A stretch of 42,756 nt of DNA from Minisyncoccota bacterium (GTDB lineage: Bacteria; Patescibacteriota; Minisyncoccia; Phycocordibacterales; EsbW-18), in assembly GCA_033811555.1 (NCBI GenBank), contig JAPXOG010000002.1:1-42756 (forward strand). The letters run 5' to 3'. The notes under the pieces were generated by a model that was not told where the DNA came from, searched no databases, and saw nothing but the letters and a program-made list of their open reading frames with translations. The position numbers and the translations under genes were made by a program. Shown here piece after piece: positions 31,933 to 33,570 of the stretch (positions within the stretch are counted from its first letter, which is position 1; the number at the start of each line of letters is the position of its first letter).

Positions 31933-32055
31933 TATCGGAGTCTTTCCTCCGAGTCGTCAGACATAGTTTAAGGATTTATGTCCATCCATCGCATGTTCAA
32001 TTGAGACATACGATATCGACCGCCTAGATTCCAACAAAAAGTTAGAACGATTGTC

Positions 32056-33570
32056 ATTTGACTAAATCCACGACCAGCTTCCGCTAGCCGTGCCTTGTTA
32101 CGCCTTAACCCTAGTTACCGAGCTTGCCTTCGGCCCCGATAAACGGGGACTTCGGGCACTCCCGGCTCCTTTGACTTGGCGGGCGGTGAGTACAAGGCTC
32201 GAGAACGTATTCACCGTGGTATTCTGACCCACGATTACTAGCGATTCCGGCTTCATGAGGTCGAGTTGCAGACCTCAATCCGAACTGAGGATGGCTTTCT
32301 TAGGATTTGCTCAGGATTACTCCGTCGCTTCCCGTTGTACCACCCATTGTATCATGTGTGTAGCCCGAGGCATCAGAGGGACATGCTGACTTGGCGTCAT
32401 CCCCACCTTCCTCCCTGCACTTTATTCACGAACAAATAAATTATTAAAACTTATTTTTCATGCACAAAGTGCAGGGCAGTCTTGTCTGACACATGTAACA
32501 GACAATAGGGGTTGCGTTCGTTACCCCACTTAAGGGAACAGCTCAAGCCACGAACTGACGACAGCCATGCATCACCTGTCCAGCCGCCCGAAGGCTCATC
32601 TAGTTTCCTAAATGATTCGTCTGGATGTCTAGCCTCGGTGAGGTTCTTCGTTCATCGTCGAATTAAACCACATGATCCACCGCTTGTGCGAGCCCCCGTC
32701 TATTCCTTTGAGTTTTAGCCTTGCGGCCGTACTACCCAGGCGGACAACTTAACGCGTTAGCTACGCCTCTAAGAGGGTCGATACTCCTAAAAGCTAGTTG
32801 TCATCGTTTAGGGCATGGACTACTGGGGTATCTAATCCCATTCGCTACCCATGCTTTCGTGTCTCAGTGTCAGGTATGCACCAGTGTACTGCCTTCGCTT
32901 TTGGCGTTCCCCATGATATCAACGGATTTCACCCCTACACCATGAGTTCCGTACACCTCTTACACCCTCTAAGTCGTACCGTTTCCTGTGCGATTCTGTT
33001 GTTAGGCAACAGGCTTTTACACAGGACTAATACAACCACCTACACACCCTTTACGCCCAATAATTCCGGATAACGCTCGGGGCTCTCGTATTACCGCTGC
33101 TGCTGGCACGAGATTAGCAGCCCCTTATTCATGAGGTACCGTCAATAAACTTCTTCCCTCATAAAAGATTTTTACGTCCCAAAAGACTTCATCAATCACG
33201 CGGCGTCGCTCCGTCACACTTTCGTGCATTGCGGAAGATTCTCGACTGCAGCCACCCGTAGGTGTCTGGACAGTATCGCAGTTCCAGTGGTGGGGGTCAG
33301 GCTCTCACCTCCCCTACGCGTCATAGCCTTGGTAAGCCGTTACCTTACCAACTAGCTGATACGAGGCAGGCCGTTCTAGAAGCGATAAATCTTTACCCCT
33401 AAGGGACCATCAAGTATTAGCTCCGCTTTCGCGGAGTTATTCCTGACTTCTAGGTACGTTCCCACCCGTTACTACCCCGTTTGCCGGTTGCCCTTGCGGG
33501 CCCCCTTGACTTGCATGCCTTATCCACGCCGCCAGCGTTCATCCTGAGCTAGGATCAAACTCTACATATA
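32056..33570 (-). rRNA. rrs: 16S ribosomal RNA (ends approximate)
   Basis: On the minus strand the gene starts AGAGTTTGATCCTAGCTCAGGATGAACGCTGGC. It contains GTGCCAGCAGCAGCGGTAATAC, GGAGGAAGGTGGGGATGACG and TGTACTCACCGCCCG. It ends GTAACAAGGCACGGCTAGCGGAAGCTGGTCGTGGAT. Confidence 0.95.

Follow-up and report, generated by a model that had tools for sequence, protein, structure and literature searches.

Absence of the anti-Shine-Dalgarno (anti-SD) motif from 16S rRNA has been recorded in 128 of 20,648 taxids, mostly certain Bacteroidetes, Mycoplasma and Carsonella, in a survey that found no variant Shine-Dalgarno (SD) sequence matched to a variant tail (Amin et al. 2018, PMC6107228). Two types of 16S tail within one genome have also been described (Alteromonas), for which heterogeneous ribosomes were proposed (PMC6107228). 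The closest known cases are in Parcubacteria, in which the motif was detected in only 48%; those without it overlap the group without ribosomal protein uL1, and SD helices are presumably not formed in them (Tsurumaki et al. 2022, RNA 28:1041, PMC9297842). Here we analyse the 16S rRNA gene and the gene starts in a 42,756-base stretch at the start of JGI contig Ga0377206_000110, which as a whole we call the window. Its 16S rRNA ends in a conserved, lineage-specific tail that has no CCUCC, its core genes start without an SD, and a compositionally separate set of open reading frames (ORFs) nonetheless carries strong, conserved SDs.

The missing anti-SD is real and is neither an assembly nor an annotation artefact. 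The Rfam model SSU_rRNA_bacteria aligned end to end with positions 33570..32056 of the minus strand (model positions 1-1533, 1377.7 bits). When the 3' part was realigned to the model, GGAUUUAGUCAAAU, which comes directly after an intact helix 45 with a GGAA loop, was placed with top posterior probability opposite the consensus GGAUcACCUCCUUu, the site of the anti-SD (GGAUCACCUCCUUU). An initial annotation of this DNA had claimed that no CCUCC core follows helix 45 and that none lies between helix 45 and the processing stem; the covariance-model alignment and a strand scan agree on both points. No CCTCC was found on the rRNA strand from 32140 to 31800, and CCUCC was likewise absent from the 16S gene itself and from the 3' trailer up to the terminator. 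The sole CTCC near the 3' end, at 31940, is one arm of a small trailer hairpin. The same annotation had raised an assembly error or a missed intervening sequence as ways in which it could be wrong. The tail is not an assembly slip, as the 185-kb contig Ga0116249_10000064, from another sample (3300010357), matches the window at 100% identity over the 18.8 kb compared, tail included, and the model alignment is complete and unbroken at the 3' end.

Conservation in the trailers of family members spans 17 nt after helix 45, after which a variable hairpin begins. Because conservation stops there, the mature 3' end of the 16S rRNA is probably at about 32052, a few nucleotides past the end of the model match at 32056. 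This placement is close to the 13 nt that follow helix 45 in E. coli. Several strings were considered as a hidden anti-SD and rejected. The CUCC at 31940 is incidental, because the stem of its GAAAGA-loop hairpin changes by compensatory substitutions and has no CUCC in relatives; the CCUCCU at 31448-31453, just past tRNA-Ile(GAU), lies in a terminator-like hairpin; the CCUCC at 40253-40257 is part of the terminator stem of ORF o161; and the ACCUCC inside ORF o83 lies past the 16S terminator and is absent in relatives. The hairpin directly after tRNA-Ile(GAU) has the form CCUCCUAAU-GUUUU-AUUAGUAGG (31435-31475, plus strand), with the CCUCCU string paired in its stem.

To determine the reach of the trait, we scanned one genome per species (185,579 species, GTDB) with a pattern that required the universal GUAACAAGG, helix 45 geometry and GAU and barred C wherever the anti-SD has C. 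Of 102 matches, 62 were 16S genes with the helix 45 type of the window (CACGxxUAGC/GCUGxxCGUG); about 13 more were other real 16S genes (Sediminibacterium, Tenacibaculum, Rickettsiales, Vampirovibrio, Dojkabacteria and others), and the remainder were chance matches outside rRNA. Names among the 62 include Candidatus Wolfe-, Jorgensen-, Lipton-, Niyogi-, Harrison-, Terry-, Lloyd-, Giovannoni-, Nealson- and Tagabacteria, as well as Paceibacterota, Minisyncoccia and 'Parcubacteria group'. The tails of all 62 consist of A and U only, over about 12 nt, with the consensus GAUUAAUUAAA(U/A), and the tail of the window, GAUUUAGUCAAAU, is this consensus with three substitutions. As the pattern demanded a non-C at tail position 9, the window's own family was outside its reach, and a pattern built on the family's G1495 signature (described below) was used instead. 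In a metagenome collection, it turned up L130, L117, L123 and L126, four relatives that share the helix 45 type; the 16S of L130 is 88% identical to that of the window over its full length. In all four, the tail is the 17-nt GAUUU(A/U)GUC(A/C)AAUGACA, with CCUCC absent within 333 nt of helix 45.

The trait is thus not a sequencing error, as the 16S genes of four family members and 62 clade members also have no anti-SD. Its loss is old and inherited, not a private defect, and the tail derives from the clade's A/U-only tail. Nor is the tail random filler: it is the conserved clade tail with three substitutions, kept over 17 nt in the family. [quoted passage not shown] Because this best match reaches only 81%, the organism represents a poorly sampled lineage in the clade. 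The initial annotation had called loss of the anti-SD rare in bacteria; that is correct overall, by the survey count given above, but within the organism's clade it is the rule, and the loss had already been published for a subgroup of Parcubacteria (PMC9297842). The phenomenon itself is not new, and the novelty here is limited to a new family-level variant.

Features of the window discussed in the text (positions are those of the whole window)
Feature	Position	Strand	Details
16S rRNA gene	32056..33570	-	Full length by Rfam SSU_rRNA_bacteria
Helix 45, CACGGCUAGC-GGAA-GCUGGUCGUG, 10 bp	32069..32092	-	Stem covaries with relatives (C/G swap)
3' tail GAUUUAGUCAAAUGACA in place of GAUCACCUCCUUA	32052..32068	-	17 nt conserved in four family relatives; no CCUCC
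16S promoter, TTGACA-N16-TATAAT	33857..33884	-	12/12 matches
Pre-16S processing stem, 5' strand	33597..33616	-	
Pre-16S processing stem, 3' strand, GAGCAGAACAAAAGAAAAAA	31913..31932	-	Conserved in relatives
Conserved trailer element AGGCGGUCGAUAU, covarying hairpin with loop CUCAAUUGA, GAUGG	31986..32025	-	
Trailer hairpin UCGGAG-GAAAGA-CUCCGA	31935..31952	-	Loop conserved, stem covaries
Intrinsic terminator AAAACCGCCC-AAUA-GGGCGGUUUU	31877..31900	-	Ends the 16S unit
recG	35395..37630	+	Leaderless-type example: TATAAT, 6 nt, AUG
murC	28661..30000	-	Second leaderless-type example: UGGUAUAGU, 8 nt, AUG
o83 unit	31564..31868	-	Promoter TTGACA-N17-TATATA; GAAAGGAGGCAAAAAAUG; 83-aa membrane-type ORF 31815..31564
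o161 unit	39670..40271	+	TTGACT-N16-TACTTT; 5' untranslated region hairpin 39711-39735; AAGAAGGAGGGAUUAUG; 161-aa ORF 39754-40239; terminator hairpin 40245-40271
o246 unit	27839..28660	-	-10 TATAGT; leader of ~45 nt; GAGAGGAGGUAGUUUUG; UUG start 28579
GC-rich island with three SD-led ORFs	24325..25492	-	o73 25474..25253; o132 25027..24629; o100 24627..24325
o66, SD-led ORF	42009..42230	-	GGGAGGAGGCUACAAUG; start 42209

The 16S gene is not a pseudogene, given its strong promoter, processing stem, terminator and covarying helix 45. The processing stem reported in the initial annotation is present: the leader 33616..33597 is the perfect complement of the trailer 31932..31913, forming 20 bp, and the terminator hairpin follows at 31900..31877. 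Between the tail and this stem, family trailers share in the same order the AGGCGGUCGAUAU block, the CUCAAUUGA-loop hairpin and the GAAAGA-loop hairpin, followed by the processing strand and the terminator. A GUCG(A/G) motif occurs 14-63 nt past helix 45 in 36 of 62 clade trailers compared with 7% in shuffles, and the AGGCGGUCGAUAU element with its hairpin is probably a processing signal. The 16S stands alone in its transcription unit (31142-33884), which has a dedicated promoter and terminator; neither a 23S nor a 5S gene lies downstream. tRNA-Ile(GAU), whose usual place is the 16S-23S spacer, is found about 630 nt from the 16S on the opposite strand (31352-31426). In relative L112, about 670 nt (L112 131-799) interrupt the 16S at a point that corresponds to approximately position 738 in the gene of the window. 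Insertions of this type are known from CPR rRNA genes, and the 16S of the window is free of them.

The decoding centre carries a second family-level change. The U1406-U1495 pair (E. coli numbering; window 32179 and 32103, minus strand), which is universally conserved, is replaced by a Watson-Crick C-G pair within GCCCGCCA and AAGGCG. This C1406-G1495 change is common to the four family relatives, and the AAGGC just before helix 45 reads AAGUC in all 59 other clade members. In model bacteria, positions 1406 and 1495 line the aminoglycoside pocket, so the change may confer intrinsic resistance.

How genes start in the absence of an anti-SD could be read from their upstream regions. Pfam agrees with the housekeeping identities given in the initial annotation (Obg, MYG1, SecA, MurB, RsmI, MurC, Alr, RecG and an LTD-PKD protein) and adds a polysaccharide cluster. 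The claim that these genes start without an SD also held, their pairing energy with the canonical anti-SD being at background; across the window, the duplex energy of positions -20..-1 stayed at background level or below in 27 of 33 ORFs. About 10 kb beyond the window, bringing the genome inspected to about 52 kb, contained rplT, rpmI, infC, smpB, ftsH and an RNase J-like gene, none with an SD; rplA, the gene for uL1, was not seen in these roughly 52 kb. In the clade, genes beside the 16S (n = 269) are depleted in G upstream of their starts (~0.15) and rich in A between -13 and -3 (0.44-0.49). TANNNT ends 6-11 nt before ATG in 33% of 257 genes compared with 13% at a control offset (92 boxes observed versus 42 expected, P = 3e-11), and these start-proximal boxes are accompanied by a -35-like element more frequently than boxes in other places (20% versus 9%, P = 0.03).

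Orthologues of two window genes preserve this arrangement. TACAAT-N6/7-AUG precedes recG in 4 of 4 orthologues (L109, L112, L131 and L130), and the murC orthologue of L134 has UGGUAUAGU-N8-AUG, with the same spacing as in the window. The simplest reading of these sequence statistics and of the orthologue conservation is that many operon-first genes would be made as leaderless or near-leaderless mRNAs, with no need for an SD, and that other genes would start behind A-rich sequence. The replacement tail does not seem to have taken over the role of the anti-SD. Pairing of the real tail with regions upstream of window genes was no better than with random 20-mers (mean -2.6 versus -3.2 kcal/mol), and 6-mers complementary to each clade genome's own tail showed only the general rise in A+T near starts, with no positional peak. 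We rejected the tail as a replacement anti-SD for want of excess complementarity before genes. An SD:anti-SD helix is impossible on ribosomes with this 16S, and the core genes have adapted by dropping the SD.

A minority of ORFs depart from this pattern. SD pairing energies are bimodally distributed, with a handful of ORFs at -11.6 to -14.4 kcal/mol, and seven units in the window (o66, o161, o83, o73, o132, o100 and o246) have (A/G)AAGGAGG 4-8 nt before the start. In the GC-rich island, AAAGGAGG lies 4-5 nt before the AUG of each of o73, o132 and o100, the last two arranged as a coupled pair; the -10 box of o246 lies inside 28577-28660, and its -35 TTGACT overlaps the end of murC just above 28660. 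That a few ORFs without recognized relatives bear strong SDs had been noticed in the initial annotation, and both the pairing energies and the placement of GGAGG confirm it. Of 80 GGAGG pentamers in the window, 9 lie 3-10 nt before the ATG of an ORF of at least 50 codons, compared with 2.4 expected (P = 7e-4). In counts that masked rRNA and took the first ATG only, strong SD cores at -16..-4 were also present in 9 of 71 ORFs of the family (12.7%, P = 7e-7) and in 33 of 377 ORFs of the clade (8.8%, in 20 of 61 loci, P = 2e-13), control offsets giving 1-2% in both cases.

These SD-led ORFs are compositionally a separate class, built as a sigma-70 promoter, a leader of 40-50 nt, an SD, an ORF and a hairpin terminator. 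The seven proteins from the window had no match in Pfam or PHROG, and only 1 of 10 SD-led proteins from relatives had one. G+C content at third codon positions (GC3) is 0.39-0.66 (mean 0.51) in SD-led ORFs and 0.23-0.36 (mean 0.29) in all 24 other genes, with no overlap (P = 8e-7). The offset recurs in relatives of different genomic G+C, with GC3 of 0.71-0.82 in o161 orthologues versus 0.52-0.54 in recG, and is likewise seen in L126 and L130. High expression was rejected as its cause because the ribosomal protein genes rplT and rpmI have core-like GC3, as does infC. A phage or mobile origin was not supported: PHROG gave no matches, and no homologues were found among 108 fetched loci. The initial annotation had called the SD-bearing ORFs puzzling. 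Their membership in a GC3-rich class of self-contained units answers this in part.

The GC-rich SD-led island adjoins a gene for a TrwB/VirD4-like coupling ATPase of 597-607 aa (22449-24272, minus strand; Pfam TrwB_AAD_bind and T4SS-DNA_transf; phrog_5156 at E = 1e-56), and IMG/VR contained no relatives of this ATPase or of o132. Elsewhere in the clade, L056 (948-2812) and L072 (5216-5735) encode several paralogous ORFs of 137-171 aa, each preceded by UUUCCUUAGGAGGAAAAAAUG, in which the SD-like GGAGG can pair with an upstream UUUCCU to form a possible leader hairpin. The first 2,186 bases of the window (1-2186) are GC-richer (46-49%) and include a triple AGGAGG/GGAGG run at 35-57; the plus strand there has only doubtful TTG-start ORFs, and JGI calls a minus-strand gene of 645-650 aa that runs off the contig end.

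Several SD-led units are conserved within the family. Among 5.8 billion proteins, and even with a profile search, o161 had homologues in only four further members of its bacterial family; they lie near recG, on contigs in which the 5' part of the 16S has 90-92% identity with that of the window. Although the recovered contigs do not reach the 16S 3' end, by parsimony all of these hosts would have no anti-SD. The five o161 proteins are 59-65% identical, and the five units all retain the -35, the -10, a leader hairpin that shows compensatory changes, and the AAGGAGG core, the SD lying 4-8 nt from the start behind a linker that varies in length and sequence. The protein is predicted as a confident all-helical model (pLDDT 83.5) with no PDB fold match and no Pfam match, and the leader matches no Rfam family. 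For o246, one orthologue (61% identity) also lies downstream of murC, with the same TTGACT-N17-TATAGT promoter and AGGAGG, and the start codon is UUG, AUG or GUG across three sequences, the orthologue starting with AUG or GUG, while the SD is kept. In the window, L130 and L117 alike, the 16S terminator is followed by a small membrane-type ORF that has an SD and a consensus promoter of its own. Conservation of the kind seen for o161 and o246 normally means that a motif is used.

The o161 segment has moved, as o161 in relatives sits on the other side of a 619/661-aa gene. A 17-nt direct repeat, CACCAATAAAAATG(C/A)TA (39588-39604 and 40458-40474), brackets an 870-bp segment containing o161 and tRNA-Ile(UAU), and its right copy overlaps the 3' end of that tRNA gene. 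tRNA-Ile with anticodon UAU is unusual in bacteria, in which AUA is normally read by a lysidine-modified CAU tRNA; the gene lies at 40388-40462 (plus strand) and also in L109 (10263-10336), upstream of the same 395-aa gene.

Collectively, these results make it very probable that the organism has an intact 16S without CCUCC, with the lineage tail GAUUUAGUCAAAUGACA, SD-less core genes and an SD-led accessory set. Under this explanation, a functional 16S has lost CCUCC and received in its place a lineage-specific tail derived from the A/U-only GAUUAAUUAAA. For operon-first genes, a -10 box 6-8 nt ahead of the AUG would give rise to leaderless or near-leaderless mRNAs, and other genes would rely on A-rich, G-poor upstream sequence. 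About one gene in eight stands outside this rule, with a sigma-70 promoter, a 40-50-nt leader, AAGGAGG and an AUG, GUG or UUG start, encoding lineage-specific proteins of foreign-looking codon composition. Such SD-led units most likely form an accessory pool of their own, shaped in the past or even now by SD-dependent initiation; descent from a foreign source that uses SDs and is richer in GC would account for their SDs, their non-AUG starts and their GC3. Several observations weigh against this explanation. Two thirds of genes have no -10 box at the start, and the leaderless mode is read from motif position and predicted start codons. The SD is kept in five o161 units while the linker varies, and in o246 while the start codon toggles, on a ribosome unable to read it. 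An accessory pool also sits uneasily with an o161 family confined to this bacterial family and with the constant position of o246 after murC. Finally, one rrs was seen in the roughly 52 kb inspected, and a normal-tailed second copy could lie elsewhere in the genome. Delivery of SD-led genes to another cell is only remotely conceivable, and we mention it solely because the o73-o132-o100 operon adjoins the VirD4/TrwB-like ATPase.

We weighed this explanation against others that differ in what they put at the 16S 3' end or at the SD. Among explanations of the SD-led units, we rank an accessory pool whose signals are maintained elsewhere or by a local function above a local reader other than the 16S tail, and that above an unseen second rRNA. 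A local reader, meaning that the GGAGG leaders of the SD-bearing ORFs are functional and are bound by a CsrA-like protein or another RNA or have a structural role, is a serious if unlikely contender. It fits the retention of the o161 SD core beside a covarying hairpin, the constancy of the o246 SD across start codon changes and the 5- to 11-fold enrichment of SDs at the right distance, which extends to 20 of 61 clade loci; and as the o161 family is endemic, selection must act in hosts without an anti-SD. However, no candidate reader was found near the window, where the 16S contains no CCUCC and every nearby CCUCC is part of a terminator or trailer hairpin. The leader has no counterpart among Rfam families, and foreign origin accounts better for the deviant GC3. 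An unseen second rRNA species with a normal anti-SD (tail GGAUCACCUCCUU or CACCUCCUU), which would translate the SD-led genes beside the GAUUUAGUC-tailed 16S, is improbable. The apparent selection on SD motifs, non-AUG starts included, and the small part of the genome inspected leave room for it, but CPR genomes are generally reported to have a single rRNA operon. The G1495 scan of metagenomes recovered four 16S genes of the family, all without an anti-SD, although it would have missed a paralogue without that signature. A precedent exists in genomes with two tail types (PMC6107228), whereas these lineages were scored as having no motif (PMC9297842).

The remaining two explanations fare worse. 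That the tail is itself an alternative anti-SD, pairing with a new complementary leader motif, is very improbable: the conservation of 17 nt in the family and about 12 nt of A and U only in the clade would suit such a role, but it pairs with window upstream regions no more strongly than with random 20-mers, tail-complementary 6-mers have no positional peak in the clade, and earlier surveys found no variant anti-SD/SD pair (PMC6107228). The idea that the absence is an artefact, with the sequence misassembled, the 16S truncated or pseudogenised, or an intervening sequence concealing a CCUCC-bearing 3' exon downstream, is close to refuted. CPR 16S genes often carry insertions, as the roughly 670 extra nt at position 738 in L112 illustrate, and one ACCUCC does lie 328 nt downstream, inside o83. 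However, two samples contain the identical sequence, the model alignment runs end to end and is unbroken at the 3' end, the processing stem and terminator close the unit before the ACCUCC is reached, and four relatives have no CCUCC within 333 nt of helix 45, as 62 clade members also go without it.

The SD:anti-SD helix is the textbook route of start finding, and lineages without its rRNA half are natural experiments in other initiation routes. The window adds a well-documented Parcubacteria case, with a replacement tail, an inferred mature end, the precursor architecture and orthologue-supported evidence for leaderless core genes, and it shows SD-bearing ORFs as a separate GC3-rich class whose SDs are nonetheless conserved. 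In the literature found, the replacement tail, its conservation and the mode of gene start are absent, the loss being reported in a single paragraph (PMC9297842). For practical purposes, a gene finder trained on an SD model will mis-call starts in such genomes, and primers or probes that end in the anti-SD will have no match. If the SD-led genes are translated, GGAGG would be read by something besides the known mechanism; if they are not, they would mark a mobile gene pool with an unsampled source. We think it unlikely, though worth stating, that conserved lineage-specific genes use GGAGG leaders under selection, read by something other than the 16S tail, whether a second rRNA species, some other RNA, a protein or, at the most speculative end, another cell's translation machinery. 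One tiny genome would then harbour two initiation regimes, with a leaderless or A-rich core and an SD-led accessory set.

The start arrangement of the core genes resembles that of prokaryotes rich in leaderless mRNAs, such as Deinococcus, many Actinobacteria, haloarchaea and Sulfolobales, which have a -10 or TATA element at a fixed short distance before the AUG and operon-first genes without an SD; in contrast to the organism studied here, they retain the anti-SD. We found no paper, in the literature searched, that ties leaderless initiation to CPR bacteria. Among unrelated lineages, some Flavobacteriia (Chryseobacterium, Elizabethkingia, Riemerella and Blattabacterium), Mycoplasma, Carsonella and Hodgkinia share a 13-nt tail without CCUCC, the absence of a general SD signal and a clustering of cases by lineage (Lim 2012; Amin 2018, PMC6107228). 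They differ in having no recognizable SD in those surveys, whereas 9-13% of ORFs carry a strong SD here. The SD-blind ribosomes of Bacteroidia (Jha 2021, PMC7797042; McNutt/Fredrick, PMC13000453) likewise read mRNAs without an SD and favour upstream adenines, and one gene, rpsU, keeps a strong regulatory SD, a precedent for an SD in an SD-independent background. Their anti-SD is present but sequestered by bS21, bS18 and bS6; here the gene itself has no anti-SD, so a mechanism of release and reading of the Bacteroidia type cannot apply. Closest are the anti-SD-less Parcubacteria, which belong to the same broad lineage, have also lost CCUCCU from the 16S 3' end and bear lineage names similar to those in our scan; their description gives a detection rate and not a replacement tail, leaderless signals or SD-led genes (PMC9297842). 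Within that group, the family of the window is set apart by its own 17-nt tail and by its C1406-G1495 pair, the latter not seen in the other 59 clade members.

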